Counted from the first letter of the stretch, positions 11,001 to 58,462 are shown. The stretch: 64,000 nucleotides of DNA from Gammaproteobacteria bacterium (GCA_004796365.1 QZLE01000074.1:12028-76027), one strand, 5' to 3'. Notes: generated by a model not told the origin, from the letters alone. Numbers and translations are program-made.

Positions 11001-12178
11001 CATTAAATGACTGCTCATTGATTGAGTTAATAGCTTCAACGATGAGCGGTAAAAACAACATCAGTGATAAAAACACCACCACTACAATTACTTCTATTGA
11101 AAGAAAGTACTATTCTAGGTTATGCAATAATAACGTACTGCTTATTGATGACAATGAAATTAATCTACAAATTGCTCAGGAACTGCTTGAGCTGGTAGGC
11201 ATTAACGTGACTCCCGTTAATAGCGGTCTAAAAGCTATAAATGCTATAAATAAACATGAATTTGATCTAGTTATCACCGACGTACAAATGCCTCACATGG
11301 ATGGTTACAAGCTCACTTCAATTATCAAAGAAACTTATAAAGACCTTCCTGTAATAGCTTTAACAGCTCATGCAATGCATGGATATAAGGAGCAATGTAT
11401 GGCAGCAGGTATGAGTGATTATATTACCAAGCCTATAAATCAAGCTTCTTTATATCAATGCTTAATTAAATGGTTAAAGCCAAAAACCTTGCACAATGAA
11501 TCTGCTAATTCAGATCATAAGATAAGCAATATTGCACCTATTACACTCACTGCAGAACAGTTTTCACATATTGATCTTGTGTCTGACATTGATATCTATT
11601 CTGCACTGGAAGCCATTGGTGGTAGCAAAAAACTATTTGTTAAGATTTTGCGCACAATCACTATGCAATACAAAAATGCGCCAGCAATCGTAAGAAAAAG
11701 ACTTGCTGCAAATGATATTGATGGAGCTGTTAATTTAATTCACTCTCTTAAGGGGTTGGTAGGGTCAGTTGCTGCGCAAGAGCTTTATGATGCCTGTAAG
11801 CTTTTAGAGGCAGCTTTAGCAGACCATAAAACTCAATTCCGCCCTGACATATTTATTATAATTGATAAACTGGAAAGCGAATTTGAGCCTGTATTAAGCG
11901 ATATATCAGCAATTATCACTTATGCAATATTGTTAAGCAATTCTGATGTCGCTCCAAAAGAAAAAACACATGATTTTGACTTATTAAATAGTAAGAATCA
12001 CATTGAAACATTTAAAGATCTTTTGGATGAAAATAACTATAAATCATTGGAATATATCCCATTTATTAAGAAACACTTAACAAATGTTGGTGGTAAGGCA
12101 GCTATTACTGAGATTGAGTCCGCAATTGAAAACTTTGATTTCCCAAAAGCCCGCGATATTTTCTATAGTTATATATAA
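8006..12178 (+). CDS. Cytoplasmic multi-GAF hybrid sensor histidine kinase (coiled coil, GAF repeats, HisKA, HATPase, intervening receiver-like region, REC, Hpt, extra C-terminal tail)
   Basis: H-box [14 protein letters not shown]; G-boxes DTGIGIS and [13 protein letters not shown]; [18 protein letters not shown]...ITKP; Hpt [10 protein letters not shown]. No TM helices are seen. The true start is probably GTG 8168, which has GGAG 6 nt upstream. The paralog at 60591 aligns only from that point ([10 protein letters not shown] vs [10 protein letters not shown]). Confidence 0.9.
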
Positions 12179-19386: not shown

Positions 19387-22300
19387 ATGAATAAAGCTGG
19401 CTGCCCATCAATTTCTTTTAAACAGGCTCACATATATTTTGCCCTGATTTATACCATTTTATGCAGTTTTAATGCATCTGGCTTTGCATTGCATGATTCT
19501 CAGGAAAGATACATTATTTCTCCAGAGGCGAAATTATTTGAAGATGCTGATGGCATTAGTTTTCAAGCAGTGAGGAACTTACCAGCCACTTCTTTTAAAG
19601 CTAATGAGGTTGATTCTGTTAGCATTGATGATAGCAGCAAATTTTATTGGATTAAGTTTCAGATAAAGTATTACTCAAATTCACCCAGCCATTATCGAAA
19701 TTGGTTTATGGAAATAGCAGCACCATCGCTTGATATTCTGGATATTTATTTCATTGAGAATGGTAATACAACCTCACACCATTTGGGGGATGATAGGCCA
19801 TACAGGGTACGCCCAGTTCAGCATGGTAATTATATAATAGATTTTAGAACCCATTCAAAATACGAGACTATTGCCTATATTCGTGTAAAGAATAGCATCT
19901 CTACTAAATTGCCAATTCGAGTTTGGTCACATCAGGCTCTTTTTTCTGAATCACAAGTACTGCAATATCTGGCAGGAATTTGTTATGGCATTTTGTTGAT
20001 AATGGTTATATATAACTTGGCAACTGGAATAACCATAAAAGATAAATGCTATACATACCTGGCAATTTATATCTTGACAGCATTTGTCTGCCTAATATCC
20101 TATGATGGCTCTGCCAGGCAGTTTCTTTGGCCCAATAGCCTTTGGTGGGAGAGCAGGGCATTGTTTTTTTGGGAGTGTTTAGTAGTCTTTTGGGGTATAC
20201 AGTTTTCAAGAAACTTTATAGATTTAGAAAACAACTATCCAATGCTTGTTAAATCTCTATATTCAATCCAGTTTTCTGCCGTACTGTGTGCAATAGTCTC
20301 AATAATAATCCCGATGAATATGTTCAGTATTTTTATGGTCTTTGCATATTCAATAATCACATTTTTATTTATGATACCGGTCGCTAAGCATGCCCATAAG
20401 TCAGAAAAGCTGTTCTTCATTTTGGCTTGGTTGCCTTTATATGTTGTCACTATAGTTTTGATAGCCGGGAAAATTGAGCTTTTCGATTTCAATATTAATT
20501 CCATCAATAAAAGATATTTGTATTACCCACTTCTGACTGCACAGTGCTTGCTTTTGTCATTAGCTTTAACCCGCAGATACAATGCAATAAAAAATAGCAA
20601 AGAAAAAGCAGAGCAATACGCTCTTGGCTCTCTACAAAGGTATAAGGATTTATTTACTAACTCAACCGCCGGTATGTTTGAGATTAGCTATAACGGTAAG
20701 GTGTTATATGTAAACCCACAAATCCTGCAAATCCTTGGCTATGACTCAGAACAAGAACTGTTGAAAAATGATAACGCACTTGATACCAGTCTATTTGTTA
20801 ATGCTGCGGATAGAAAGCGTTACTTAAGGCTCCTATTAAAAAACGGACGTGTAACAAATTTTGAATTTCAATTTAAGAGAAAAAATGGAGAAATTGCCTG
20901 GGGGCTTGTTTCCAGTTGCCTGGTAACGGATTCAGATTCTACTGAATATGTGGTCAGTAAACCAAATATAGAAGGATCAATAGTTGATATTACTGCATCC
21001 AAGGAAAAAGAGAGCATTGAAAAGAGGCTTATTGAAGCGGAAACATCAGCTAACGTAAAATCTCAGTTACTTGCAAGCAGCAGTCATGAACTGCGCACCC
21101 CAATGAATGCGATAATTGGCTTTACGTCATTATTGCAAAAAACTGAACTAGATGAGAAGCAATTCAATTATTCTGAAAAAGTAAGGATTGCTGCGAAAGG
21201 GTTGTTAAGGCTGATTAATGACATCCTTGATAACTCTAAACTAGAAGCTGGTGAGATGGAAATTGAATCCGTCAACTTTAATCTAGATAAACTACTAAAT
21301 GAAGTAGTTGATATGTTTGCAGAGCCATTCAATGAGAAAGGGATAGAGTTGATACTCTTGAAGAAACCCGATGTACCTGTCGATTTAGTTGGTGACCCAC
21401 TGCGCATAAATCAGATCTTGATAAATCTAATCAACAATGCAATGAAGTTCACATCTGAAGGATATGTCGCGGTCACTATTGAGCATATTCCAGGTCATGA
21501 TGATGGTATTGATCTTTATTTTACAGTAAGTGATACAGGCGCCGGAATCGTTCCTGAAAGATGCGAAAGAATCTTTGATCCATACCAGCAGGCAAATTCA
21601 TCTGTGGCAAAGCTATTTGGCGGAACAGGGTTAGGCCTTAGCGTCTGTAAAAATCTGATTGAAAAAATGGGTGGGCAAATAAACGTTAAAAGCGCTGTAG
21701 GTCAAGGTTCAGAATTTATGTTTAGTATGCACCTTGGTATACAGCAGTTTGTAGGTAATGAAATTGAAACTTACGAGGAATTAGCTGGTAAAACCGCTTT
21801 TATTATTGATAGTAACAAGCTAGCCGTTGAGCAGCTTAAGGATGAGTTATCAAAATTTAAAATTAACTCAGTTTCTGCATTCAGTGGCGAAATGGCCCTA
21901 CAAAGGTTGATATCTCTTGGTGAAGCAGATCAATATGATTTTATTATTATTGAAAGAAATCTTGTCGATGCCCCAGGAATAAATATTATTAAAGAACTAA
22001 AGACTGACTCATCAACATCTAAGATACCGATTGCGCTTACATCCAGAACTGGATTTAATGATCTTTCAGAAAGGGATCGTAATTCGGGAATTAATGAACT
22101 CCTGGTCAAACCAATCAAAAGTAATAACTTAATTAAGACTTTAATAAGTATTTTCAATTTAGACTATGTTCCGCCAGTACAAGATGAAAATGAACATAAT
22201 GAATTAATTGGACTATTCAAAGATAAAAGAATACTGCTTGTTGAAGACAACGAGCTTAATCAAGAATTATTTACCGAGTTATTAGCTGGATCTGGTGCCA

Positions 22301-23016
22301 TTATCGAAATTGCAAAGACTGGGGCAGCAGCTATCGAGACAATCAACAAATCCGTATTTGATATTATTATGATGGATATTCAAATGCCAATATTAAACGG
22401 GATTGAAGCAACTAAAATTATAAGGAGAGAGCACAAAGAATTCGCTGATATCCCGATCATAGCCCTCACAGCAAATGTTTTGGAGTGTAATATTAAAGAG
22501 TATAGTGAGGCAGGTATGGACGGATTTATACCCAAGCCAATTGATTTTGCAGATCTTATATCGTCCCTAAAACAGTGGCTAAACATAGATAATAACGCCT
22601 TAATCTCTGAAACCAATAAAGAATCTGATGCTGTGTTAACTTGCCAATTACAGCAATCAGATACTATTGATCTTGCATCTGGATTAAAAAAGCTTGGAGG
22701 GAATAAAAAGCTGTATTATAAAATCCTGAATGACTTTGTAGATACATATAGACGTGAGAAAGAATCACTGTTTATCCTATTAAATGACAAGGACACTGAA
22801 ACTTTAAGTAGAAAGCTACATTCAATTAAAGGTATTAGCCTAAATTTAGGCCTTGATAATTTAGGTGAGATAGCTAGATCCGCTGAGCTGATAGTAAAAG
22901 ATGCTGGGTTAGATAAACAGAATGATTTTGAAAAAGCGCAAAGCCTCATTGAAAACTTCTATCAATTGCTTGAAGATGTTGCAGCTGAGCTAGATAAACT
23001 CCACATACTAAAATAG
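19387..23016 (+). CDS. 7TMR-DISM-type hybrid sensor histidine kinase (periplasmic DISMED2-like domain, 7 TM, PAS, HisKA, HATPase, receiver-like domain, REC, Hpt)
   Basis: 1209 aa. An N-terminal signal/TM is followed by a roughly 170-aa extracytoplasmic domain and then seven hydrophobic helices (aa ~195-400). PAS segment FTNSTAGMFEISYNGKVLYVNPQ; H-box SSSHELRTPMNAI; G-box [13 protein letters not shown]; REC DIIMMDIQMPILNG; Hpt LHSIKGISLNLG. Confidence 0.88.
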   Translation: MNKAGCPSISFKQAHIYFALIYTILCSFNASGFALHDSQERYIISPEAKLFEDADGISFQAVRNLPATSFKANEVDSVSIDDSSKFYWIKFQIKYYSNSPSHYRNWFMEIAAPSLDILDIYFIENGNTTSHHLGDDRPYRVRPVQHGNYIIDFRTHSKYETIAYIRVKNSISTKLPIRVWSHQALFSESQVLQYLAGICYGILLIMVIYNLATGITIKDKCYTYLAIYILTAFVCLISYDGSARQFLWPNSLWWESRALFFWECLVVFWGIQFSRNFIDLENNYPMLVKSLYSIQFSAVLCAIVSIIIPMNMFSIFMVFAYSIITFLFMIPVAKHAHKSEKLFFILAWLPLYVVTIVLIAGKIELFDFNINSINKRYLYYPLLTAQCLLLSLALTRRYNAIKNSKEKAEQYALGSLQRYKDLFTNSTAGMFEISYNGKVLYVNPQILQILGYDSEQELLKNDNALDTSLFVNAADRKRYLRLLLKNGRVTNFEFQFKRKNGEIAWGLVSSCLVTDSDSTEYVVSKPNIEGSIVDITASKEKESIEKRLIEAETSANVKSQLLASSSHELRTPMNAIIGFTSLLQKTELDEKQFNYSEKVRIAAKGLLRLINDILDNSKLEAGEMEIESVNFNLDKLLNEVVDMFAEPFNEKGIELILLKKPDVPVDLVGDPLRINQILINLINNAMKFTSEGYVAVTIEHIPGHDDGIDLYFTVSDTGAGIVPERCERIFDPYQQANSSVAKLFGGTGLGLSVCKNLIEKMGGQINVKSAVGQGSEFMFSMHLGIQQFVGNEIETYEELAGKTAFIIDSNKLAVEQLKDELSKFKINSVSAFSGEMALQRLISLGEADQYDFIIIERNLVDAPGINIIKELKTDSSTSKIPIALTSRTGFNDLSERDRNSGINELLVKPIKSNNLIKTLISIFNLDYVPPVQDENEHNELIGLFKDKRILLVEDNELNQELFTELLAGSGAIIEIAKTGAAAIETINKSVFDIIMMDIQMPILNGIEATKIIRREHKEFADIPIIALTANVLECNIKEYSEAGMDGFIPKPIDFADLISSLKQWLNIDNNALISETNKESDAVLTCQLQQSDTIDLASGLKKLGGNKKLYYKILNDFVDTYRREKESLFILLNDKDTETLSRKLHSIKGISLNLGLDNLGEIARSAELIVKDAGLDKQNDFEKAQSLIENFYQLLEDVAAELDKLHILK

Positions 23017-23118: not shown

Positions 23119-24291
23119 TTATACCACTGTTAACAGCATATAACCTGAAGAAAATCTGCCGCTTTCAGGAACAAAACACAATAGTCTTTCTCCTGCTTTC
23201 AGTTTTCCAGAATTAAATAACTCATCAAGAATAATATATATTGATGCCGAACCAGTATTTCCTTTGGAGTTAAGATTGGTAAACCACTTCTCTTCTGGAA
23301 TCGGATAATTCATCTCTTCCAGCTTTTCTAGGATTTTAGATCTGAAATATTCTGAAGATATGTGAGGTAGAAAATAGTCGATATCCTCAGGCTTGAGTCC
23401 CCTTTTTGCAATGACTTTATTGATGGTTTTTTCAATACAGTAATCAACAATGTTCTCATTGAGCAATTTTACATCTTGCTTGATAGCCATGATATTGTCT
23501 GAATACCATTCCTGATTGCTGAATTCACGCCAACCTACTAATGAGCCATCTTCCTGCTTTTGTGCGCCGGTATACATGCATGTCTCTATCTCATTGGCAT
23601 ATGAGTAGATATCAATCCATTCGATTTTTAATGACCGCTTACCCTTATTAGGTGTATTTTCTATTAAAACTGCACCAGCTCCATCTGAAAGCATCCAGCG
23701 TAAAAAATCTTTTTCAAACGCTAGCTCAGGTCTTTTATCTAGGTTATTAACCTTTTCTTCAATCTCGCCTTGATAGTACTCACCCTTAAAATGAGGTGAT
23801 GCTGCCTCAGATCCAGTAGCAACAGCATTTTCATGATCACCACTTAGAACAGATAGGTATGCATACTTAAGAGAGGTAAGACCCGCAAGGCATATACCAG
23901 CAGTTGAGATAACTTCACAAGGAGGATTTTTAAGTTCACCATGCACCATTACTGCATGACCTGGATTCATCTGGTCAGGCATTGTTGTACCGGAAGAAAG
24001 GCATTCAATTTCATCAACTGAAAACGAATCGCCTTCCAGGTTCTTAATGGCAAGCGCTGCAAGTTCAGCATTGGTATAAACAGCCTGCCTAGTTTTAGGG
24101 TCAAGTACATAGTACCTAGTCTCAATGCCATTGCTTTTAAGAATTATTTTTTTAGCTCTTGATGGTTTACCTCCAACCATTCCTAAAATATTCTCCATTT
24201 CATCATTGGAGACGGGGTCGTTGGGCATAAAGGCCGCAACATTTGTTATATATGCACTTATAGTATTATCCATTGATATTATCCATTTCAA
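23119..24291 (-). CDS. FabH-like beta-ketoacyl-ACP synthase III family protein, DarB-like
   Basis: 390 aa with a KAS III Cys-His-Asn triad in the contexts TAGICLAGLTS, FLPHISSEYF and KGNTGSASIYI. It overlaps the 3' end of the upstream DarA-like gene; the alternative start ATG 24273 would give an 8-nt overlap. Confidence 0.75.
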   Translation of the reverse strand: MKWIISMDNTISAYITNVAAFMPNDPVSNDEMENILGMVGGKPSRAKKIILKSNGIETRYYVLDPKTRQAVYTNAELAALAIKNLEGDSFSVDEIECLSSGTTMPDQMNPGHAVMVHGELKNPPCEVISTAGICLAGLTSLKYAYLSVLSGDHENAVATGSEAASPHFKGEYYQGEIEEKVNNLDKRPELAFEKDFLRWMLSDGAGAVLIENTPNKGKRSLKIEWIDIYSYANEIETCMYTGAQKQEDGSLVGWREFSNQEWYSDNIMAIKQDVKLLNENIVDYCIEKTINKVIAKRGLKPEDIDYFLPHISSEYFRSKILEKLEEMNYPIPEEKWFTNLNSKGNTGSASIYIILDELFNSGKLKAGERLLCFVPESGRFSSGYMLLTVV

Positions 24292-25240
24292 TTTTGTTCA
24301 TATTGAAATTATCAGAACCAGATGGCGCCTCAAAATATATCGCTTCTTTGCTTTTATTCTTCTTATTATTATATGACAAAGATATTAAAAATCTTATTAG
24401 CATAGGGATAGGCACCACTATAATTATCATTATTGTTAAGTATACCGCAAAAAGTAACAAAAAAGGGTAGCGAAGTATTGATTTCCGGGGCGCAATGAGC
24501 CTTAATAATTTTGACCAAACTTTAAATGCCCGGTGTCCAGATTTTTCACTAAAGATAAGTTTTTCATCAACCTCTGCAGCCTTATAACCTTGCAGCATAG
24601 ATTGGGATTTTAAATCTTTCTCTTCTTCGAAGCCCTTGATAATAGCACGCCCGAATCTCTGAGCATCCTTGATATCTTTAGGAGATATTCCAGGTTTAGG
24701 AAATATGCCGAATAGCGAATTTTTCTTACCTGTTAACAACCATCTTGTGACAGTTATGAAGTTTGCTATTGATCCCCCTCTGTCAACCAATACGGCGTTA
24801 TCTATATGTATTGCACCCAGGTCTAGTAATAATTTCTTCACTTTTTCCTGAGCCATCAACCACATGTTTCTGCAGCCAATAAGTGTAATTACCGGGGTAT
24901 CTTTAAACACCTTGGTAGCATAATCACTCTGCAAAAGTGCAGTAGCAGGTAGGGAGGGGGAGAGAAACCATACCTGATAGGCAAATATAATTAGGTCATA
25001 CTTTTGAGTCGGGGACTTAGGCTGATTAAGCGGAGGAGCATCCAAGGCAATACATTCAGGAAAAACATCAAAGAAACGAAAAAAACCCCATGGAAACTTG
25101 AACTCTTCTTGTACTGATATCTCTTCAAAAAAAAGTTCAATATCGCCAATATCGATTAGCGGAGCCGTAACCGAATCAACAACATCCTTCAGCTGTCCAG
25201 ACTGACTATAGTAAAAAACCAATATTTTACGTTTTTTCAT
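24266..25240 (-). CDS. DarA-like protein (dialkylresorcinol-condensing-enzyme family), flavodoxin-like N-terminus with C-terminal TM helices
   Basis: 324 aa. It has MKKRKILVFYYSQSGQL, YQVWFLSPSLP and LIGCRNMWLMAQEKVKKLL. These motifs match my recollection of DarA proteins encoded next to a FabH-like DarB. The family call has not been verified by search. Confidence 0.5.
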   Translation of the reverse strand: MKKRKILVFYYSQSGQLKDVVDSVTAPLIDIGDIELFFEEISVQEEFKFPWGFFRFFDVFPECIALDAPPLNQPKSPTQKYDLIIFAYQVWFLSPSLPATALLQSDYATKVFKDTPVITLIGCRNMWLMAQEKVKKLLLDLGAIHIDNAVLVDRGGSIANFITVTRWLLTGKKNSLFGIFPKPGISPKDIKDAQRFGRAIIKGFEEEKDLKSQSMLQGYKAAEVDEKLIFSEKSGHRAFKVWSKLLRLIAPRKSILRYPFLLLFAVYLTIMIIIVVPIPMLIRFLISLSYNNKKNKSKEAIYFEAPSGSDNFNMNKIEMDNING

Positions 25241-25263
25241 TATCTGACTTATTCAGCCCACAG

Positions 25264-26496
25264 TTAAAATCTGTAAGAAGTTTGCAGCATTATCATCTGC
25301 CAGTCTTTATGTAAGCTTCCGTTTTGCATTGAATAGATGAAATCTTTCATTGGAATCCATCCTGTACCTTCAACATCATGAAATTCAGCTCTAATAAGTA
25401 GAGAGTCAGAATAGTGCCATCCTAAACCAAGTACCCAGTTCTTTGCATAGAATGAGTGTGCAGGATATCCAGTACTTGCCTGAAGTCTAGCACCGTCTTT
25501 ATCGTTCTTATCTATATAGAGCACTCCATGACGCAGCATCAGCTCCCACTTTGGAACAAAACGATATGTGGATTGAAGGTAATATGATAGACCTTTTGTA
25601 TCCTGATCGGGAATAGGGGGTAGAAGGTTTAGAATTTTATTTTTTGTTGGTACGTATTCACCTACAAACTTCCATTTGTCAGTATTATATTCGGCAGATA
25701 GAAATTTTGCAGAAGTAGAAACTTCTGTTTCAGGAAGTATTCCATAACCTAAATTGCTATTGTTTATCTTGTATGCAGTGTAGCCATACGAAAGCCCGAT
25801 CCTAATTCTACCTGTATCGTGCTCATATAGAAGTTTTGCAACTCCTGTTTCACCATCTTTAATATCTCCAATGATATATCCTGGCGTTGCCAGAAGCTCT
25901 TTAACCGCTTCAGTGCTAGGATCTTTATTTGAACCAAGCAATCTAAAAGATAGAGAATTTGAAGACCAGCTGCGCATAGCAAATAACTCGAAACCATCAG
26001 TTGAATACATCCAATCCCTATATCTTTCAAGATACATTGATTGCGGAACTAGAATTCCTGGACGTGTAAATGCTACGTCTCTTGTTTCGTTATAAAATCC
26101 CTGAGGAGCTTTGATACGACCCGCTCTAACCCCTAATGACCAATCAACATCGTTTATGGCTGTGTAGGTTATAAAACCGTGGTCTAGCTCAATAGACCCA
26201 TCATCGCTTTTGCCGGCCTTTCTTGAAAGTAATGATGCTGAAAGTTGAAAATTTCTTAGAAAAGTAGTCGAGAAAAGAAATTCAACTTCTCTATAGTCAA
26301 GGCTAATATCATCATCGCTTTCGCCAAAGAAGTTATTGTTTGTAGTATGAATTAGCGATTGGCTTATATAACCGTCCCATCGAAAGTTTGAAAAAACTTC
26401 GTCTGCATTTACAGCAGTTGGTAGTAGCATCGTTACCACAAGGCTAAAAGCTAATTTTTTCTGTTTCTGATAGTTTCTATGCATAAGTTTATCCAC
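25264..26496 (-). CDS. Outer-membrane beta-barrel protein (porin-like, family unassigned)
   Basis: 410 aa. It has the signal peptide KLAFSLVVTMLLPTAVNA/DE, alternating-hydrophobicity strands throughout, and a C-terminus LQTSYRF whose terminal aromatic residue is typical of BAM substrates. Confidence 0.7.
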   Translation of the reverse strand: MDKLMHRNYQKQKKLAFSLVVTMLLPTAVNADEVFSNFRWDGYISQSLIHTTNNNFFGESDDDISLDYREVEFLFSTTFLRNFQLSASLLSRKAGKSDDGSIELDHGFITYTAINDVDWSLGVRAGRIKAPQGFYNETRDVAFTRPGILVPQSMYLERYRDWMYSTDGFELFAMRSWSSNSLSFRLLGSNKDPSTEAVKELLATPGYIIGDIKDGETGVAKLLYEHDTGRIRIGLSYGYTAYKINNSNLGYGILPETEVSTSAKFLSAEYNTDKWKFVGEYVPTKNKILNLLPPIPDQDTKGLSYYLQSTYRFVPKWELMLRHGVLYIDKNDKDGARLQASTGYPAHSFYAKNWVLGLGWHYSDSLLIRAEFHDVEGTGWIPMKDFIYSMQNGSLHKDWQMIMLQTSYRF

Positions 26497-26577
26497 TTAA
26501 GTTCCCTTTAAATCCTGGCTATGCTTATATAGCCTTTTAAGCATGCGTTAGAAAAATGGTCAAAGAGCTTCATTATA

Positions 26578-27021
26578 CTAGCGCATCGTTGTTCGTTTTA
26601 CATCTAATTCTACCCGTTTCACAGAATTAAGGTCGTTATCATAAAGTCTGTCTGTATAACCAATCGCACCCGGAGTTCGCTTGAGAATATCAATCATCTC
26701 TTCCTTGGTTTTAGCAACAATGGGCGGCTGCCCAAGACCTGAATACGTAACCCTATCCCACCCACCTTTTAGCTGATGAGGGAATATATTAAGGATCTTT
26801 TTACAAAACTCTTTATGTACTGTGGAGTTATTAGGCATTGTTACTACAGTAACTGGAAGGCCGTCAGGCCATTGTTTAAGCCTGAGGCTAAAGATTGCCC
26901 TTAACTCTCGATTAGTTAAGTATTCAAACTTTTGAGACGATGACGATTTGTTGGTGATTATATCTATTGCATAAGCACATGGTGAAAAAGCAATACACAA
27001 GACAAAGCATAGCAAAAGCAT
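26578..27021 (-). CDS. Small periplasmic PstS-like (type 2 PBP-fold) protein
   Basis: The track ORF extends to 27132, but ATG 27021 gives MLLLCFVLCIAFSPCAYA/IDI, a clean signal peptide (148 aa). It has REL(R)AIFS..WPDG, GAIGY and the PBP-like segment PHQLKGGWDRVTYSG. Confidence 0.55.
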   Translation of the reverse strand: MLLLCFVLCIAFSPCAYAIDIITNKSSSSQKFEYLTNRELRAIFSLRLKQWPDGLPVTVVTMPNNSTVHKEFCKKILNIFPHQLKGGWDRVTYSGLGQPPIVAKTKEEMIDILKRTPGAIGYTDRLYDNDLNSVKRVELDVKRTTMR

Positions 27022-27461
27022 ATTTCCAGCTCTTTTTGCATAATTTTCAATTGCTTGCGTTAATAACTTAATGTACAAAATTGAAAGATCCACGGTTACG
27101 AGCAATAAATACTCAATATCATTACCACACATGAAAGACAGATATTCAGCGGTCGTACATTATACATTAAAAATCTGTTGTAAAAAGGGGCATTACCAGA
27201 TTCTGATAAAGTAATTGCATACACTAAAATAAAATGCCTGTTTCAAATATTCTTGAGCTAAGTGTATCTGCTTGTTCTTACGACTAAATACAGTCCACAA
27301 TGGATAAATTCAGCCTTTTTTTCGTGAAAAGACCTGTTTATTTAATTATTTAGCAAACTTGATCACTTTTTTACCAATTTACCGTCCAAGATTGTGGTAT
27401 GGAGGGGTATATCAACTATATTTGTAATAGGAGATTGGCATCAAAAGTTATTGCAGGGAAT

Positions 27462-28067
27462 ATGATTATGACTGATCAGAATAACAATAGTAATACAAAT
27501 GACTATATGTCCGGTTCAAACGCCGAGTCGCCCGACCTAGACTGGAGTCAAGTCAGGGAAACCGTTTTTATTCTCAATCTTGCAGTTGGACAAATTCTTG
27601 CCTCTTTAAAAGATGGAAACGAAAGCATAGGTACCCTTTCTGATAATTTTATAAATATGGCAGGTGAGCTCACTGAGGTAGAACTGCTTGCAGGAAGAAT
27701 TTCTATTGATGCCGATCAACATATAAATACAGAGAGTAAAAAGCAAATCATAGAGCATTGCAAATCAGTTGCAGGATCCGTACAAAAATCAATAGTTACC
27801 TTTCAGTTTTATGATCGATTATGCCAAAGGCTTGAAAGAGTTTCAGATGGGTTAAACGGTGTTGCTGACATCATCGGCAATCCAGCAAAATTATACAACC
27901 CATTTGAGTGGAATAAATTACACCAGAAAATCCATACCAGCTATAGCACTGAAGAAGAGCGGCAGATGTTGGAGCTGATAAAAAATGGCTGTTCAGTTCA
28001 TGATGCTATAGAAAAAGTTGTTACGCAATCAGATATTTCTGATGAGGATTCAGTAGAGTTATTTTAG
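27462..28067 (+). CDS. CheZ-like protein (putative aspartyl-phosphate phosphatase), first gene of the phosphorelay operon
   Basis: About 201 aa from ATG 27462 (AGGGA Shine-Dalgarno upstream; the track ORF starts at 27399). It has [11 protein letters not shown] with D-x3-Q (Asp codon at 27813), which mirrors CheZ QDFQDLTGQ. The C-terminal tail is acidic and ends in hydrophobic residues ([12 protein letters not shown]), like the CheY-binding tail of CheZ, and the size is similar to CheZ. Confidence 0.45.
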
Positions 28068-30184
28068 TGGATAGTATGACAAACAAAATGCCAAAGATAC
28101 TTATAGTAGATGATCAGGAAATGAATATCTACGCCATGGAACAGGTGCTAAAAAATGTTGGCGCAGAGATCTTCACGGCTAAATCAGGTAATGAGGCTCT
28201 ATCCAGAATTCTTTACCACGATTTTGCACTAATACTGATGGATGTTCAGATGCCCGAAATGAACGGATTTGAGGCTGCTGAAATTATCCGTTCAAATGAT
28301 GAGACCAAATACACCCCTATCATATTTGTTACAGCAATAAACAAGGAAGAAAAATTTGTTGCACGAGGATACCAAACTGGCGCAGTGGATTATTTATTTA
28401 AGCCCGTTGATCCGGATATTCTTATAGCCAAAGTTAGCTTCTTTCTTGATTTGGCAAATGCGCATAATGAACTCAAAGAAAAGCAGTCGGAGCTGGAATT
28501 ATTAAATAACAAACTCATTGAAGAAAATGAAAGCCGTAAGAGAGCCGAAGAGGCTGCTCTAGAAGCAAGCAAGACAAAAAGCATGTTTTTAGCAAATATG
28601 AGTCATGAAATCAGAACCCCAATGAACGGGGTTATTGGTATGATAGGGCTCTTGCTTGATACGAACCTGTCTGATTTACAAAGAGAGTATGCGGAAGATG
28701 TTAAATTTTCTGCTGACTCATTACTTGGTATTATTAATGATATTCTCGATTTCTCAAAGATTGAAGCTGGCAAGCTAGACCTTGAGGTAATTGATTTTGA
28801 TTTACGAAACGCAATAAGTCACATTGTTTCTACTCTCAGACACAAAGCCCACGAAAAAGGTATTGCGATTAATTCTGAGATAGACGATCAAATTCCTTCT
28901 TCAATACGTGGTGACCCAACTAGACTAAGGCAAATCTTGCTCAACCTAACCGGGAATGCCATTAAGTTTACTCAGAAAGGCAGTGTAACGATCCAAATTC
29001 ATCTGGTTAGTGAGTCAACAAAAGACGCGACCATACGTTTTAATGTTATTGACACTGGAATAGGCATTGAAAACGAGCGACTAGGTAAGATTTTTGAGTC
29101 ATTTACCCAGGCTGATGACTCCACCACTAGGCAGTTTGGCGGTACAGGTCTTGGTTTAACAATATCTAAGCAGCTTATAGAGTTGATGAAAGGCTCTATT
29201 ACAGTTGAAAGCAAGATAAATGAGGGTACCAAATTTTCCTTTGAAGTAATGCTGGAAAAACAAAAGTTTGGAAGTAATGGTATTAGCCCGATTACTACTC
29301 AGCATGAGGATGATCAGCGAGCAGAGCAAAATACAATCGTACTTGATGATCAAAAAGTTGATAATCTTGGGACTGAAATTGTCGGCAAGAAGATTCTGAT
29401 TGTGGATAATGACCAGAAAACCCTAACAAATGTATCGACATTGCTTTACGATTTGGGATGTAATCCGCTTGTTACGCAAAGCGGAGCTGAAGCTATTGAT
29501 ATACTCATGACAACAGCGGCTAATAACGGCATTGATGTTGTATTAATTGATTCAATTCTATCTGACATGGACGGCTCTGATCTCGGCCAAAAAATACGGG
29601 GTATGAAACTTACATATACTCCTAAGCTAATAATGTCTACTGCAGTAGGGAAAAGAGGAGAGGGGGCCAAAGCTAAGGAGATAGGTTTTAGCGGTTATCT
29701 TTCAAAGCCAACAACGTCATCTCAATTGCATGACACAATCAGTGCGGTTATCCAAAGCAAAGAGAGCGACGATTCGTTTATTACCAAATACTCTTTTGCT
29801 GAAGCACAAAAAAGAGACGCCAACATTCTTCTTGTTGAGGATAACCAAATAAATAGAACTGTAGCTTCCGTAATAATCAAAAAATTTGGCTGCATGGTTG
29901 ATACTTCTACAAATGGCGAAGAGGCCATAAAGGCGCACCTTGAAAAGGATTATGACATCATACTAATGGATTGTGAGATGCCTGTAATGGATGGCTTCGA
30001 AGCAACAAAAAGCATTAGAGCAATGGATAATCATAAGAAGGACATACCAATAATTGCAATTACTGCATATGCAATGGAGGGAGATAGAGAAAAGTGTATT
30101 TCTGCGGGAATGGATGATCACATCACAAAACCTATTACAGCAAACGTATTAACAGGCCTGCTTGAAAGGTGGCTAAAAAAATAA
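28067..30184 (+). CDS. Soluble hybrid histidine kinase with architecture REC, coiled coil, HisKA, HATPase, REC, REC
   Basis: 705 aa. N-terminal REC ILIVDDQ...[15 protein letters not shown]...LFKP; H-box [14 protein letters not shown]; G-box [13 protein letters not shown]; middle [28 protein letters not shown]; C-terminal [28 protein letters not shown]. No TM or sensory domain is seen. The GTG start shares a base with the upstream TAG; ATG 28076 is an alternative start. Confidence 0.9.
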
Positions 30185-32847
30185 TGGCAGCAGAAAACGC
30201 AGAAAATACAAACCTTGTTATTGAAATGCTAAAGCATGAGATTGAGTATCTCAATGTTACAGTTCGCCTCGTAAAAGGTGAGCTCGAAAAAGAACGCAGC
30301 CACCGTAAAATTTTACAACTTCAACTTAAATCTGGTTCCATAGATACTGATCAACTTGAGTCTGATATAGAATCTATGAATGCTCCTGTTCATAGTAAAG
30401 ATATGTATTCTTTATTAGAACTAGAGGAACTTCTAAAGTATTTTGAAGAAAGCATTTCAGGTCTTTCTTCTGTCGATGGTTTCTTGTTCAATATAATTGA
30501 TTCAAGCAAGGAAAACCTAATTTGTGAACGCATCAAATTACCGCCAGCATATTATGGTGTAGAAGCCATGTATCGGAATTATAAATTCCCTTTAAGGCAG
30601 TTTGATGCAAACGTACATGCCTTTCGAGATCAGGTAACAATTTCAGTCGATGAGTCAAATCTAGACAACTATTCAGAAAGCACAAAAACACGATTTGAAC
30701 GCTGGAAAATGGAAAAGATGTTGGTAATTCCGATTATTCCTAATGATCGAGTCGACCCAATCGGCACACTTATGGTTTTTTCCCAGGATGGAAATATTGA
30801 TTCAAATTCAGTAAATTACATCGAAAAGCTACTACAAAATCTTCTTGTTCCGCTTAGCAACGCAATAAAATTTACAAGCCTTAAACGCAGAGAAAATAAT
30901 ATCAAACAGATAGAGGAAGAGCATATGCGTTTTTTGAGGTTTGTAGTTGAAATTAATAATCTAAATAATGTAGAACTCATTAGAGAGATAGTCTGCGAAG
31001 AGTTTTTATCAAGCTTCAATTTCGATGTTGCTTCACTTTTTATTCAGGAAGACGACAAATTAAAATGTTGTAAAACTGTCGTAAGTGAAGATGAATACAA
31101 CGATATTCAATCACAATGGACAGATTATTTTTGCAATGTTGACTATGAACTGAGTCTTAAAGACGGGAGTCCACCAACCTGTTTTTTGCAAAATGCGATT
31201 CAGCACATACCTGATACTGAAGAAATCATTCATCTTCCAATGTCAAAAATAGATCGCGACATTATTAATATAATGGGCGGCACGCCACATACAATGCTTT
31301 GCCTCCCTATTAGAGAACACTACCACCCTGTAGGTGTATTATGGATGTTTAGCTTGAAAAATCCTGTAAAGCTTACAGATCAACAACTAAAACTAATCGA
31401 GCTTTTATGTGTATTTGTGGGTGCAGAGATGGCGAATGCACAACTTTATACAACTGTTGAGCGCCAAAATATTGAGATTGAAGCGCTAAATCTTGACATG
31501 AGTGCTACTGTAAATGAACTTGAAGAGCACAAAAATAATCTGCAGTATCTGGTTAACGAAAAGACATATGACATAACGCTTGCAAAAAACGAAGCTGAAA
31601 GGGCCAATGCTGCAAAGTCAGAATTTTTAGCAAATATGTCTCATGAGCTTCGCACACCTCTAAATAGTATGCTAATGCTCACAAAGTTGATATTAAACGA
31701 TGATGAAAAAAACTTAACCCCTAATCAACTCGAGTATGCAAAAATAATTTACGAAAGTGGACAGAATCTTCTTCAGCTAATTAACGATATTCTCGATATA
31801 TCAAAAGCAGAATCTGGAAAGATGCAGATTGATCTGCTGAAGATTAATCTAATTGATCATCTGAATAGTATTATAGATATGTACAAAATATCAGTACATA
31901 AACAGCAGTTGTTCCTCAGACTCGATTTGAAGCAAAACATACCAACCTTTATTTATTCTGACCCACAGCGTTTAGAGCAAGTTATTGTGAATTTATTATC
32001 CAATGCAATGAAATTCACAAATAAAGGCGGCATTACAATCACTATATATTCACCTTTAAATAGTGAACTCTCAGAAGTACTGCCCGTTAAAGCAAGCACT
32101 GAATTTATTGCTATAACCGTTGAAGATACTGGTATAGGCATTTCGCCTGAAAAGCAAAAAAATATATTTGATGCGTTTATGCAAGCAGATGGATCAATAA
32201 GCAGAAATTATGGAGGAACAGGACTTGGTCTAGCTATCAGCAAAGAAATCTGCACATTGTTAAATGGAACAATAACTTTAGAATCTTCTGAAGGGCAGGG
32301 GAGTAAATTTACCGTATACTTACCTGTTGATCCCAAAGAAGCAAGTAAAGCCGATTCAGAGAGCGATGACCAATCGCTACTTTTAGCAACCAAGGAGCAG
32401 GTCGAGAAAATTAAAATTGAAGATATAAGAAAAGAAATGCCTGAAATCAATAAACCAGAGCAAGAATCAGAAAGTGAAGAGCAGAAAGAACAAATAATTA
32501 CTGGTGAGCATATCGATGGCCTTCCTATACTTATACTAGATAATGATATGCGCAATGCCTATATATTAGCCAATCAGTTACGACAAAAAGGGATGCATGT
32601 TGAGCTTGCTGATAGCGTGGAACTTGCAATTAATAAAATTAATGAAATTGAGTACATACACATAGCGATGATAAAGGGAATTGGTAATATTAAAAAAATT
32701 AAAAGTAACGTCGCTGAGGACACTATAATAATAGGCACTGATAACAACAACGACTTGAAGCATATCCAGGAAAATGGAGCCAGTATAAGCCTACAATACC
32801 CAGTTAACCCAGAAGCATTAGTTGCTGAATTACACCAGATGGATTAA
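30184..32847 (+). CDS. Cytoplasmic tandem-GAF histidine kinase with a C-terminal pseudo-receiver
   Basis: ATG 30184 overlaps the upstream stop (TAATG); the track ORF starts at 30169. It has an N-terminal coiled coil and two GAF-like blocks homologous to those in the 8006 and 60591 kinases. H-box ANMSHELRTPLNSM; G-box GGTGLGLAISKEI. The C-terminal ILILDND...IHIAMIKG domain lacks the phospho-acceptor Asp. Confidence 0.88.
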   Translation: MAAENAENTNLVIEMLKHEIEYLNVTVRLVKGELEKERSHRKILQLQLKSGSIDTDQLESDIESMNAPVHSKDMYSLLELEELLKYFEESISGLSSVDGFLFNIIDSSKENLICERIKLPPAYYGVEAMYRNYKFPLRQFDANVHAFRDQVTISVDESNLDNYSESTKTRFERWKMEKMLVIPIIPNDRVDPIGTLMVFSQDGNIDSNSVNYIEKLLQNLLVPLSNAIKFTSLKRRENNIKQIEEEHMRFLRFVVEINNLNNVELIREIVCEEFLSSFNFDVASLFIQEDDKLKCCKTVVSEDEYNDIQSQWTDYFCNVDYELSLKDGSPPTCFLQNAIQHIPDTEEIIHLPMSKIDRDIINIMGGTPHTMLCLPIREHYHPVGVLWMFSLKNPVKLTDQQLKLIELLCVFVGAEMANAQLYTTVERQNIEIEALNLDMSATVNELEEHKNNLQYLVNEKTYDITLAKNEAERANAAKSEFLANMSHELRTPLNSMLMLTKLILNDDEKNLTPNQLEYAKIIYESGQNLLQLINDILDISKAESGKMQIDLLKINLIDHLNSIIDMYKISVHKQQLFLRLDLKQNIPTFIYSDPQRLEQVIVNLLSNAMKFTNKGGITITIYSPLNSELSEVLPVKASTEFIAITVEDTGIGISPEKQKNIFDAFMQADGSISRNYGGTGLGLAISKEICTLLNGTITLESSEGQGSKFTVYLPVDPKEASKADSESDDQSLLLATKEQVEKIKIEDIRKEMPEINKPEQESESEEQKEQIITGEHIDGLPILILDNDMRNAYILANQLRQKGMHVELADSVELAINKINEIEYIHIAMIKGIGNIKKIKSNVAEDTIIIGTDNNNDLKHIQENGASISLQYPVNPEALVAELHQMD

Positions 32848-32849
32848 AG

Positions 32850-34988
32850 ATGTCAGAAGATAAGGTCAAAGTTCTAGTAGTAGATGACATTGAAGCAAAC
32901 CTGTTTGCTATGCAGCAGGTGCTAAAACCAATTGATGGTATAGAGATAATAACAGCTTCAAATGGCCGAGATGCATTAGATATTCTCAATGAACAAGAAA
33001 TTGCATTGGTCTTTTTGGATGTTCAGATGCCCGAAATGAATGGCTACGAGGTGGCCAGCAAAATTCAGGAGCTAGAAAACTATAATTGTGATGTGCCGAT
33101 AATACTGGTAACAGCTATAAATACAGAGGAAGAGTTTATATCAAACGGTTATCAAAGTGGTGCAATCGATTATATTTCTAAGCCAGTTAATAATGATATT
33201 TTAATAAAAAAGACTAAGGCGTTTGTTAAGTTATTTGAAAATAAGAAAAAGCTTGAGCAAGCAAATAAGCAGTTACAAATACTTTCAAACAAAAACGAAT
33301 CAATTCTGACCTTTGCAGGTGAAGGGATATTAGTTATATCTAAAGATGGTGCAATAATGCTTTCAAATCCCGCATCACAAAAGCTACTTGAGGTTGAGGA
33401 ATCCGAGATCATTGGCATGTCGATATGCGATATTATAACTACAGATGAAACAAAAAAGTATGGCTGGAATGACTCCGTACTTTACAAATGCGCTAACAAC
33501 AATAATACCTACCATATTGATAACACAGAATTTAGAAAAATAAATGGTCAGCGATTTCCGGTCGATTATACATTTTCACCTATAAAAGATGATCCAGATA
33601 CAGCAGGTATGATAATCTTCCGTGATATATCAATAAGAAAACATGCTGAAGAACAGCTAATAAAATTAGCAAGATATGACTCATTGACAGGCCTTGCCAA
33701 CAGATCTGTATTTAAAGATTCACTTGTCAGATCAATGGCTCGCGCGGCACGCCAAAAGCAGATGGTTGGTGTGATGTTTTTAGATCTTGATCACTTCAAA
33801 GAAGTAAATGATAAACACGGACATACCATCGGAGATCAGTTACTTATCAGTGTTGCCAATAGGTTACAAAAATGCATCAGAACAAATGATATGGCAGCAC
33901 GACTAGGTGGCGATGAGTTTGCAATAATTTTGGATTTGATCTCTTCATCTGATAATGCCGCCCATATCGCGCAAAAGATTATTGATACCGTTGGCGGGCA
34001 GCATGAGCTAGATGGAATATCAGTTTATATCAGCCCAAGCATCGGTATTACAATCTATCCAGGCGAAAGTGAAACCCCGGAAGATATCCTTAAATCTGCC
34101 GATTCTGCGATGTATCGTGCTAAAGAAGTTGGGCGTAATAATTATCAATTCTACGATAGAAAGATGTATGAAAAGGCCAGAGAGCGCGCACATCTGGAGA
34201 ATGAACTCAAAATTGCTACGATGCGTAATGATTTTGAACTATATTATCAGCCGCAAATATCGTCTAAAACCGGGCAAATATGCGGTTTAGAGGCGTTGCT
34301 AAGGTGGCCGCATTATGACTTTGGTATGGTTTCACCAGCTGTATTTATTCCAGCGGCTGAAAGCACCGGTCTCATCACGACAATTGGCGAATGGGTGTTG
34401 AGAACTGTATGCCAGCAGACACATGAATGGGTTGAGAAAGGTATTACAGGGCTTGATTTAACCGTTGCTTTAAACGTATCTACCAGGCAATTGCGAGATG
34501 GCACATTTGCAAAAATGGTAGAGGAGGTCATTAAAACATCACACCTTGAACCAAATCAGGTAGAAATTGAAATAACAGAAAGTACTATTATGGACGACCC
34601 TGAAACAGCAATTGCCGAATTGCAAAAGGTCCATGATCTAGGTGTTAAGATTGCAATGGACGATTTCGGTACTGGCTTTTCATCCTTAAGCTATTTGAAT
34701 ATGCTACCAATAGACACAATTAAGATAGACCAGAGTTTTACGAAAGATATCGGAGAAGATCCGAAAGATGAAGCAATAGTAAAAGCCATTATTGGTTTGG
34801 CGCATACCTTAGGGTTAAAGGTGATTGCAGAAGGTGTTGAGGAAGAATATCACGTTAATTTCTTGCGCGAAAACGGATGCGATATCTTGCAAGGTTACTT
34901 CTATAGTAGGCCGGTAGCTGTCGATATTATTACCGAGCTACTTACAGAAAATGACAGTGACCATAACAACACAGTACCAAAAAGTTAA
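32850..34988 (+). CDS. Response regulator with REC-PAS-GGDEF-EAL architecture (c-di-GMP turnover)
   Basis: 712 aa. [28 protein letters not shown]; PAS; GGDEF with RTNDMAARLGGDEFAIIL (intact I-site and A-site); EAL with EALLRW, EITES and DDFGTGFSS. Confidence 0.93.
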   Translation: MSEDKVKVLVVDDIEANLFAMQQVLKPIDGIEIITASNGRDALDILNEQEIALVFLDVQMPEMNGYEVASKIQELENYNCDVPIILVTAINTEEEFISNGYQSGAIDYISKPVNNDILIKKTKAFVKLFENKKKLEQANKQLQILSNKNESILTFAGEGILVISKDGAIMLSNPASQKLLEVEESEIIGMSICDIITTDETKKYGWNDSVLYKCANNNNTYHIDNTEFRKINGQRFPVDYTFSPIKDDPDTAGMIIFRDISIRKHAEEQLIKLARYDSLTGLANRSVFKDSLVRSMARAARQKQMVGVMFLDLDHFKEVNDKHGHTIGDQLLISVANRLQKCIRTNDMAARLGGDEFAIILDLISSSDNAAHIAQKIIDTVGGQHELDGISVYISPSIGITIYPGESETPEDILKSADSAMYRAKEVGRNNYQFYDRKMYEKARERAHLENELKIATMRNDFELYYQPQISSKTGQICGLEALLRWPHYDFGMVSPAVFIPAAESTGLITTIGEWVLRTVCQQTHEWVEKGITGLDLTVALNVSTRQLRDGTFAKMVEEVIKTSHLEPNQVEIEITESTIMDDPETAIAELQKVHDLGVKIAMDDFGTGFSSLSYLNMLPIDTIKIDQSFTKDIGEDPKDEAIVKAIIGLAHTLGLKVIAEGVEEEYHVNFLRENGCDILQGYFYSRPVAVDIITELLTENDSDHNNTVPKS

Positions 34989-57166: not shown

Positions 57167-57784
57167 TTAAAAATCAAAGCTGCTTTGTAGTTCCTGCTTT
57201 CTTGATTTGAAATCAATTATATTTGGCATATCTGAAGACTTAACATTTAAGTCATTATTTACTTGCAATGCAGTGGGTTTATTTTCGAAACTCAATTCAG
57301 CTGATTGAACAAATAATGAATGTGAGCAGCTCATTGTGCTCACTGGAGAACTATACACCTCACCTTGTGTCTTCCATTCAGATTGTCCAATAATATATGC
57401 AATTGAATTTCCAGTAATACAGGCATCATATATTTTTTGATATTGCTGCAATGAAACATCATCATGTTTACCAATAACTGCAGCACAGTTACCGCAAGCT
57501 AGTGCCCGACAGATGGTGTCAATATTATTTGATCTATCATTTGAATACACCATTATAATTTGTCTTGTATCCAGCTCTACCGCGTTAAGCATATTTTTTA
57601 GAAGGCTAGATGGATTGATTACAGCAATCCAGCGCTGGTCTTGCCTTACATAGTTAATAATTCGGCAAAAATCATTTAAATCATTTTTGAAATTTACTAG
57701 CTCACCCTTACTGGCAGCAAAACTTGGCTCAAAACTGCCGGTTATAAAAATCTCTGGGTTATTAAATGCTTTAAATGTTCTCAT
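57167..57784 (-). CDS. sulA: SulA-like SOS cell-division inhibitor, co-transcribed with lexA
   Basis: 205 aa, starting 45 nt downstream of lexA on the same strand. TICRALACGNCAAVIGK parallels E. coli SulA MVRALRTGNYSVVIGW. A lexA-sulA operon is known in Pseudomonas. Confidence 0.55.
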   Translation of the reverse strand: MRTFKAFNNPEIFITGSFEPSFAASKGELVNFKNDLNDFCRIINYVRQDQRWIAVINPSSLLKNMLNAVELDTRQIIMVYSNDRSNNIDTICRALACGNCAAVIGKHDDVSLQQYQKIYDACITGNSIAYIIGQSEWKTQGEVYSSPVSTMSCSHSLFVQSAELSFENKPTALQVNNDLNVKSSDMPNIIDFKSRKQELQSSFDF

Positions 57785-57829: not shown

Positions 57830-58462
57830 TTAAATATTTCTTATTACACCGATTCCAAGTCCTTCTATAGCAAAATATTCATTAGTGGAATCAATAGTTA
57901 TTGGCAAAAGTTCGTCATTCTCTGGAATTAAGCTAATAGTGTTGCCTTGTTTTTCAAAACGTTTCACAGTTACTTCATCTTCTAAGCGGGCGACAACAAT
58001 TTGTCCATTTCTCACTTGATTTGTTTTATGTACAACCAGAAAATCATCGTCATATATACCAATATTGATCATGCTATTACCTGATACCTTAAGTAGATAG
58101 TCAGGTTTCATGGGAAAAATTGATTCATCTATAGCATACCTTTGAGTGATATGTTCTTGCGCAAGGATTGGGCTGCCCGCAGCAACCATACCAACCAGAG
58201 GAATGCCCTGCTCTGATTCATGACTAACAGGTATCTCATGATGTTGATTGCTATGTACAATTCTTATTCCACGTGACGATCCTGCTTGAAGCTCAATCAC
58301 CCCTTTTTTCTGTAATGCTTTTAAATGATCTTCGGCGGCGTTAGGAGATCTAAATCCAAGTGCTTTGCAAATATCAGATCGTGTAGGAGGATATCCTTCA
58401 TCGTTAATAAAAGATGATATAAAATCCAAAACCTGTTGTTGCCTGTTTGTTAATTTCTTCAT
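57830..58462 (-). CDS. lexA: LexA repressor
   Basis: 210 aa. It has an N-terminal wHTH (LTNRQQQVLDFI...GYPPTRSDI), the cleavage site VAAGSP (Ala-Gly), the catalytic Ser in VSGNSMIN and the catalytic Lys in VTVKRF. Confidence 0.95.
   Translation of the reverse strand: MKKLTNRQQQVLDFISSFINDEGYPPTRSDICKALGFRSPNAAEDHLKALQKKGVIELQAGSSRGIRIVHSNQHHEIPVSHESEQGIPLVGMVAAGSPILAQEHITQRYAIDESIFPMKPDYLLKVSGNSMINIGIYDDDFLVVHKTNQVRNGQIVVARLEDEVTVKRFEKQGNTISLIPENDELLPITIDSTNEYFAIEGLGIGVIRNI

Follow-up and report, generated by a model that had tools for sequence, protein, structure and literature searches.

A widespread family of hypothetical proteins with a CheZ-type motif: candidate auxiliary phosphatases for receiver domains

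Introduction

Phosphatases dedicated to the resetting of receiver domains are known from chemotaxis (CheZ and CheC/CheX/FliY) and from sporulation (Spo0E and Rap), and ordinary proteobacterial two-component systems are thought to depend on a bifunctional kinase or on intrinsic decay. CheC/CheX/FliY and Spo0E/Rap are stand-alone proteins that insert an amide or an acid side chain to speed dephosphorylation of the receiver. The HisKA_3 kinases, such as NarX and DesK, carry the phosphatase motif H-[DE]-x-x-x-Q on a helix of the DHp domain (see PMC3510030). For CheZ, a published survey of over 1,800 proteins places a conserved AxxF(Y)Q directly before the catalytic DxxxQ (PMC7750401). The 'stage 1' F7 chemosensory system possesses its own cheY, contains no cheZ and has an unknown output (Ortega et al. 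2020; PMC7184735), and the ancestral 'stage 1/2' F7 systems include V. cholerae cluster III and P. aeruginosa Che2 (PMC7184735).

Here we describe a protein encoded on a 64,000-nucleotide stretch of gammaproteobacterial DNA (the window), together with its relatives. The original prediction for this protein, made from the DNA alone, was that of a dedicated phosphatase of the CheZ type that resets one of the receiver domains of its own operon. The comparison with CheZ, the conservation of the motif and the genes that accompany the family are presented below, and the alternatives to a phosphatase are weighed against them.

The gene and its operon

Four tightly packed genes make up the operon (Table 1), and the present gene comes first among them; its upstream neighbour is divergent. 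Two other starts are possible, at 27399 and 27468, the second of which is where an identical public protein (P0001) begins. The reading frame contains the expected motif with the D-x3-Q spacing and ends in ..DEDSVELF. The two residues first designated Asp139 and Gln143 are the right pair, with the Asp codon correctly placed, and that numbering holds from the start at 27399; counted from 27462, as throughout this text, they are D118 (GAT, 27813..27815) and Q122 (CAA, 27825..27827), and the motif segment comprises residues 114-124 of the 201. The TAG stop codon overlaps or abuts the start of the hybrid kinase gene at 28067..30184, and the gene is translationally coupled to this kinase, whose first domain is a receiver.

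Four receiver domains had been counted in the operon; with Pfam there are five receiver-like domains, three in the hybrid kinase, a weak one in the second kinase and one in the GGDEF-EAL protein. The weak domain, at the C-terminus of the GAF kinase (window 32527-32832; residues 787-888), matches Response_reg with an E-value of 0.0055; it has probably degenerated to a pseudo-receiver. The N-terminal receiver of the hybrid kinase (about 28094..28441) and the receiver of the GGDEF-EAL protein (about 32871..33212) are paralogues of 52% identity, far nearer to each other than to the other two receivers of the kinase, and the acidic pocket, phospho-Asp, Thr and Lys are all present in both. These two domains probably share a phosphodonor or a phosphatase. 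A special kinship of the kinase receiver to the CheY of F7 systems was considered and rejected: pairwise identity is 29-32%, and the strong phmmer E-value is the summed score of three receivers.

As originally stated, the window contains no che, mcp or flagellar gene, none being found by Pfam among the scanned ORFs of at least 150 aa. The scan took in all but 5 of the 42 ORFs of that size (the exceptions being three of the four at 23119..27132 on the minus strand, 57167..57784 and 57830..58462) and one ORF of 135 aa. It also gave several other kinases, GGDEF proteins and a pho/pst cluster. The window is rich in signalling genes; those at 8006-12178, 19387-23016, 59533-60507 (minus strand) and 60579->63998 include a 1,390-aa GAF-kinase-REC protein, a 7TMR-DISM kinase that also bears REC and Hpt, a CBS-GGDEF protein and a long ORF with REC that extends past the end of the window. 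At 46596-47987 a TackOD1 domain (Thaumarchaeal output domain 1, E 1.5e-62) is joined to a partial GGDEF domain.

Table 1. Features of the gene, its predicted protein and the operon, in window coordinates
Feature	Position	Strand	Basis and remarks
CDS of the CheZ-like family member	27462..28067	+	201 aa; stop TAG 28065..28067
N-terminal conserved block, residues 24-34 (PDLDW..ET)	27531..27563	+	Start of helix 1; distant members keep only W28, E33, T34
Predicted helix 1, residues 28-79	27543..27698	+	AlphaFold2, pLDDT about 80-88; holds conserved G52, S55, L59, F63
Predicted helix 2, residues 90-139, bearing the motif	27729..27878	+	AlphaFold2
Core motif T113-F-Q115-F116-Y117-D118-R-L-C-Q122	27798..27827	+	Family consensus A-F-Q-F-Y-D-[RK]-L-x-Q; proposed catalytic pair D118/Q122
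Small helical C-terminal subdomain, residues 141-193	27882..28040	+	AlphaFold2; three short helices 147-193; conserved P147, E149, W150, G176
Acidic low-confidence tail	28029..28064	+	Proposed receiver-docking peptide; ends in conserved [IV]-E-L-F-COOH
Hybrid kinase REC-HisKA-HATPase-REC-REC	28067..30184	+	Pfam; likelier start ATG 28076
Second kinase GAF-HisKA-HATPase with degenerate receiver	30169..32847	+	Pfam; kept beside the first kinase in loci L005 and L007
REC-PAS-GGDEF-EAL response regulator	32850..34988	+	Pfam

The family and its conserved motif

A word-indexed search returned 313 homologues of the window protein, and by exhaustive search the family amounts to 1,617 clusters at 50% identity. 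Its members are roughly 180-200 aa in length and nearly all are annotated as 'hypothetical'. No Pfam, NCBIfam or PDB sequence match was obtained for the family, the matches that did appear being coiled-coil noise that was set aside (Baculo_PEP_C, COG3_N and designed coiled coils). A PhoU-like metal-binding bundle, suggested by a single match at E = 3, was likewise rejected. A search of a literature library found no description of the family, of a CheZ-like family outside chemotaxis, of a phosphatase linked to pilR or of the motif string. Three relatives (P0070, P0463 and P0465) bear the name 'Chemotaxis protein CheZ' or 'Chemotaxis protein', given by UniProt or by one submitter and probably automatic; at NCBI they are hypothetical. 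Another relative, P0336, has an N-terminal extension of 120 aa (residues 1-120) with no Pfam match.

Conservation was assessed over 344 distinct sequences, the most distant of them 22% identical to the window protein, and the motif is the best-conserved part of the family. Q115 is present in all 344, D118 and Q122 in 343 each, F116 in 342 and W150 in 340. The residue before the Asp is Tyr in 330 sequences, Phe in 9 and His in 5. Five positions before the Asp there is Ala in 310 sequences, Ser in 15 and Thr in 12, and the window protein has T113. The C-terminal residue is Phe in 332/344, and the last four residues fit [IV][ED][LF]F. The acidic tail with a hydrophobic end, likened in the original prediction to the CheY-binding peptide of CheZ (..DDLLDSLGF), does resemble that peptide, and both its acidic stretch and its terminal Phe are conserved across the family, but it has a short tether.

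The bare D-x3-Q spacing is uninformative, because 54% of 1,025 control ORFs of at least 150 aa, drawn from the window and the fetched loci, contain D...Q. The signal above chance is the conservation of the motif across the family and not the spacing. Of the control ORFs, 0.4% contain the extended pattern of the CheZ type, A..[FY].D...Q, and 0.4% have an acidic/hydrophobic tail ending in F, and among about 1,000 of these ORFs only CheZ and members of the family combine the extended motif with the tail.

Predicted structure

The window protein was modelled as a monomer with AlphaFold2 from an alignment of 54 sequences (mean pLDDT 79). The model consists of a long hairpin of two helices (50+50 residues, pLDDT about 80-90), followed by the small C-terminal subdomain and a tail in which pLDDT falls below 50 at residues 196-201. 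A helical hairpin had been anticipated, and the model agrees with this. It places the D/Q pair on the second helix, with D118 located 28 residues into the 50-residue helix 2. The conserved residues of helix 1 should, by their position in the model, face the motif. E. coli CheZ was modelled as a control, with low confidence; there D143 comes 39 residues into the second helix, which is 66 residues long and is followed by a 30-residue linker and a terminal helix.

Foldseek comparison of the family model with the PDB gave generic hairpins (MCP signalling domains, Vipp1/PspA and prefoldin) with a best E-value of 0.09. When the CheZ control model was searched in the same way it retrieved 1KMI only, via 84% sequence identity, and everything else had an E-value above 1. 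The negative Foldseek result carries no weight, because the method fails to retrieve the fold class even for the CheZ control.

Comparison with CheZ and other phosphatases

CheZ (PF04344; 1KMI) is among the known proteins nearest to the family. Both are about 200 aa in length with a long helical hairpin, as predicted here for the family; in both, an Asp and a Gln at a spacing of four residues follow A-x-x-F on the second helix; both end in an acidic peptide that closes with L-(x)-F-COOH; and some members of the family adjoin cheY or lie within che clusters. The family consensus agrees with the CheZ signature at A(-5), F(-2), D and Q(+4). In the model the putative catalytic Asp and Gln stand on the C-terminal hairpin helix, and they follow a sequence of the AxxF(Y)Q kind, but position -1 is Y rather than Q, and the window protein has T at -5. 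The differences extend to positions +1 and +2, so that -1, +1 and +2 are Y, R/K and L in the family and Q, L and T in CheZ, and the D/Q pair appears, on a tentative reading, to be one position off the heptad register of CheZ. The hairpin is also shorter (50+50 residues, against about 51+66 in the CheZ control), the disordered linker of ~30 residues gives way to a folded helical subdomain, the tail is short and the PDLDW..ET block at the N-terminus is peculiar to the family. Finally, most members, the window copy included, are found outside che operons.

The original prediction was to stand or fall in part by profile similarity to CheZ; none that was significant was found with Pfam, with a profile search of the PDB or with hhalign, and on that count it formally falls. 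Pfam CheZ (PF04344) matched 0/107 members (54 + 53) at E-values up to 10, and did not match the window protein. A profile of the family run against PDB sequences did not retrieve 1KMI, and hhalign against alignments of 15 and of 44 CheZ sequences gave probabilities of 0.3-0.5% with the motifs unaligned. These alignments were an enterobacterial CheZ set (15) and a set of 44 non-redundant CheZ recovered from genomes, all with identities to E. coli CheZ of 54% or more, the Pseudomonas, Helicobacter and alpha-proteobacterial types being absent from them; the E. coli CheZ query is 100% identical to 1KMI_Z.

Below the threshold of significance, the two families do align at the motif. With HMMER run unfiltered, the segment 'ivafqFYDrlsqrl' of the family profile pairs without gaps with 'MMAQDFQDLTGQVI' of CheZ in the great majority of the CheZ sequences listed first, at sub-threshold scores of 1-9 bits (E 0.002-0.8 for 44 sequences). 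This alignment places A, F, D and Q of the family in exact register with MAQDFQDLTGQ of CheZ, and the reverse search, from CheZ to the family, maps the same helices. The resemblance at the level of the motif is compatible with either very deep divergence or convergence. Significant homology is not demonstrated by these sequence comparisons, and we make no claim that the proteins belong to the CheZ family.

The family shares with the HisKA_3 kinases a D-x3-Q on a helix of a hairpin, the HisKA_3 domain being a four-helix bundle that dephosphorylates its receiver, and Tyr117 occupies the place of the phospho-accepting His. The family differs in that it lacks the His and the ATPase domain and gave no Pfam match to HisKA_3, and its motif is carried on the second helix, whereas in the kinases it is on the first helix of the DHp domain. 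No invariant His was found in the family, nor any HisKA_3 or HATPase match, and the idea that the protein is the DHp remnant of a HisKA_3 kinase was rejected, the His being missing and the motif lying on the wrong helix. An Hpt identity finds no invariant His in the family either, and only in P0367 does an Hpt domain occur, as a distinct domain fused at the N-terminus. The family is stand-alone, as are CheC/CheX/FliY and Spo0E/Rap, but those proteins have other folds and motifs (E-x2-N; SQELD) and gave no Pfam match in the family. In two of the chemosensory clusters described below (L174 and L175) a separate CheC/CheX-like gene coexists with the family member.

Genomic context of the relatives

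The order of family member, REC-kinase and GAF-kinase seen in the window is kept in its own clade, in loci L005 and L007 (72% and 50% identity). In L007 (344-4198) a PilY1 gene lies three genes upstream of the family member. A metagenome survey added 80 further loci at 36-46% identity, in which ORFs were called anew and annotated with HMMs. Taking one locus for each of 27 lineages and two genes on each side, 94 neighbours were scanned with Pfam; the most frequent domains were Response_reg (5), Sigma54_activat (3), CheR (3) and ParA-like ATPase (3), followed by MCPsignal, CheD, EAL and HisKA/HATPase (2 each).

There is also a clade of 17 members, 15 of whose loci have the order pilS-pilR-family member, with a PilS-type kinase (PF25323 6TM_PilS) and an NtrC-family regulator directly upstream. 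The gaps are 0-141 nt, mostly under 40. Type IV pilus regulators recur beside the family in settings that are otherwise unrelated, and PilR or a pilus-linked receiver could be a common partner. With typA in front, the series typA-pilS-pilR-family member is seen in L094-L096, L106, L108, L110, L112, L121, L123, L125, L127, L133, L135, L138 and L166. Elsewhere, in L173 (9463-11268), FimW and a REC-PAS-GGDEF-EAL gene lie downstream of the family member. Individual loci show further receivers: in L164 a kinase, a REC-PP2C gene and a gene for a 452-aa REC protein precede the family member, so that the REC-PP2C is two genes upstream and the REC immediately upstream, and in L169 a PAS kinase comes after the family member, and a REC protein is encoded convergently on the other strand.

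The protein had been described as lying outside any chemotaxis context, which is true of the window copy and not of the family, since some members are embedded in che clusters. Members are encoded with che genes in L174, L175, L109, L165 and L134. In L174 and L175 the order is cheY-cheA-cheW-aer2-like mcp-parA-like-STAS-family member-cheR-cheD-cheB, and after cheB come an mcpA-like mcp, STAS, REC-PP2C, REC and a faint CheC/CheX-like gene; L109 and L165 are further instances of this kind of cluster. The first two (L174:3355-17840 and L175:782-17944) are complete clusters resembling 'stage 1' of F7 and lie beside soxYZ. In L134 and L142 an F7-type cheY (phmmer 4e-56 to the CheY of L174) is directly followed by the family member, cheD, an mcpA-like mcp and STAS. 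The L174/L175 clusters share with the F7 'stage 1' system the order cheY-cheA-cheW-aer2-like mcp ... cheR-cheD-cheB-mcpA-like mcp-STAS-REC-PP2C, and differ in that the published cluster has neither the insertion of parA-like, STAS and family member nor a phosphatase for its CheY (PMC7184735). The window copy is not inside a cluster of the F7 type.

Two fusions were found. P0367 joins an Hpt domain, with its HxxxG histidine present, to a family member, and P0349 resembles such a fusion with a damaged N-terminus. P0356 joins STAS to a family member, and the STAS gene that precedes the family member in L109 and L165 is a homologue of the STAS part of P0356. Many loci are orphans, beside murB, purT/djlA, helicases or tRNA genes. 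The order purT-family member-djlA recurs in one lineage (L097, L111, L122, L124, L140, L144, L145 and L149), and in the Rhodocyclales loci L001, L009 and L010 the family member follows murB. The motif and the tail are unchanged across every one of these contexts.

Discussion

In our best explanation the family consists of auxiliary CheZ-like aspartyl-phosphate phosphatases for receiver domains, one of which has here been recruited to a relay of kinases and c-di-GMP enzymes. This reading is preferred because a receiver domain is common to the informative contexts (CheY/CheB, PilR, the receivers of hybrid kinases, REC-PP2C and REC-GGDEF-EAL) and because the protein combines a CheZ-type motif, a hairpin and a tail. 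We hold it with about even confidence, because catalysis is something that we infer, profile homology was not found, three motif positions are unlike CheZ and the tail is conserved across clades with very different neighbouring receivers; the many orphan members also count against it. As for the dedicated receiver phosphatase of the original prediction, the motif, the predicted hairpin, the tail, the coupling to the kinase and the contexts speak for it, and the lack of significant CheZ profile similarity speaks against it.

The mechanism would resemble that of CheZ. The protein would dimerize with its D/Q pair exposed on the surface, and its tail may dock on a phosphorylated receiver domain so that Asp118 and Gln122, on the second helix of the hairpin, could enter the active site of the receiver. 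There Gln122 would position the attacking water and Asp118 would pair with the conserved Lys of the receiver, and loss of the aspartyl phosphate would be sped up. As putative substrates of the window protein we propose the receiver at the N-terminus of the hybrid kinase, which is the prime candidate, and/or the receiver of the GGDEF-EAL protein that is 52% identical to it. The signal that governs c-di-GMP turnover would then be shorter-lived.

The same features could belong to a non-catalytic accessory of phosphorelay and chemosensory modules, such as an adaptor, an anti-kinase or a positioning factor. The tail and a patch on the hairpin would then bind a receiver, Hpt, STAS or ParA-like partner, and QF.D...Q would be a binding surface that hydrolyses no acyl phosphate. 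ParA-like proteins such as PpfA and ParC position chemoreceptor arrays, and small helical hairpins such as Sda and PspA inhibit kinases or activators, both of which count towards this reading. So do the company of a ParA-like ATPase and a STAS protein in the che clusters, the STAS fusion, the lack of detected homology to any phosphatase and the presence of Vipp1/PspA among the weak Foldseek matches. An accessory role is nevertheless rather unlikely in our judgement, since most contexts contain no ParA-like or STAS gene, the near-invariant Asp and Gln at i and i+4 after A..F are the catalytic signature of CheZ, and the F7 clusters that carry a family member are without any CheZ. A more distant alternative is a coiled-coil protein unrelated to phosphotransfer, whose D[IV]ELF tail binds a universally conserved partner and whose signalling neighbourhoods are lineage-specific accidents. 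Roughly half of the loci that were sampled are of the orphan kind, beside housekeeping genes (murB, purT/djlA, helicases and a tRNA synthetase), which agrees with this, as does the uniformity of the tail across contexts. The receivers that neighbour different clades are only about 23% identical to one another, yet the tail is conserved across those clades, which argues for one common partner better than for many receivers. We still think this alternative improbable: signalling genes are enriched by the family in independent lineages (REC 5, CheR 3, MCP 2, CheD 2 and kinase 2 of 94), Hpt and STAS fusions occur, and the tight operon with kinases is kept down to 50% identity. The family tail recalls that of SSB (DDDIPF) or clamp-binding peptides (QLxLF), but it has no Gln as in the latter and exceeds the former by one residue. 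Mimicry of either peptide has no contextual support and was set aside except as part of this alternative.

Very improbable indeed is a divergent orthodox CheZ that acts on a flagellar CheY encoded elsewhere, with the neighbouring kinase incidental. UniProt automatically names two relatives 'Chemotaxis protein (CheZ)' and some relatives do lie in che clusters, but those clusters are of the non-flagellar F7 'stage 1' type. In addition, the stop codon overlaps or abuts the kinase start, the gene order with the kinases is conserved, Pfam CheZ gave no match and the scanned ORFs of the window yielded no che or fla gene.

Returning to the receiver phosphatase, we suggest more tentatively that the family is the missing CheY-P phosphatase of the ancestral, non-flagellar F7-type systems, repeatedly recruited to PilS-PilR, to hybrid kinases that feed c-di-GMP enzymes and to Hpt/STAS partner-switching modules. 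If so, it would offer a candidate for the phosphatase that is missing from F7-type systems with unknown output (PMC7184735). If the phosphatase reading is true, the family would represent a new and widespread class of auxiliary receiver phosphatases (over 1,600 clusters at 50% identity) that has arrived at the D-x3-Q solution of CheZ by deep divergence or by convergence, and a large family of hypothetical proteins would gain a name. It would also constitute a general point of control for signal lifetime beside PilR, hybrid kinases and c-di-GMP enzymes.
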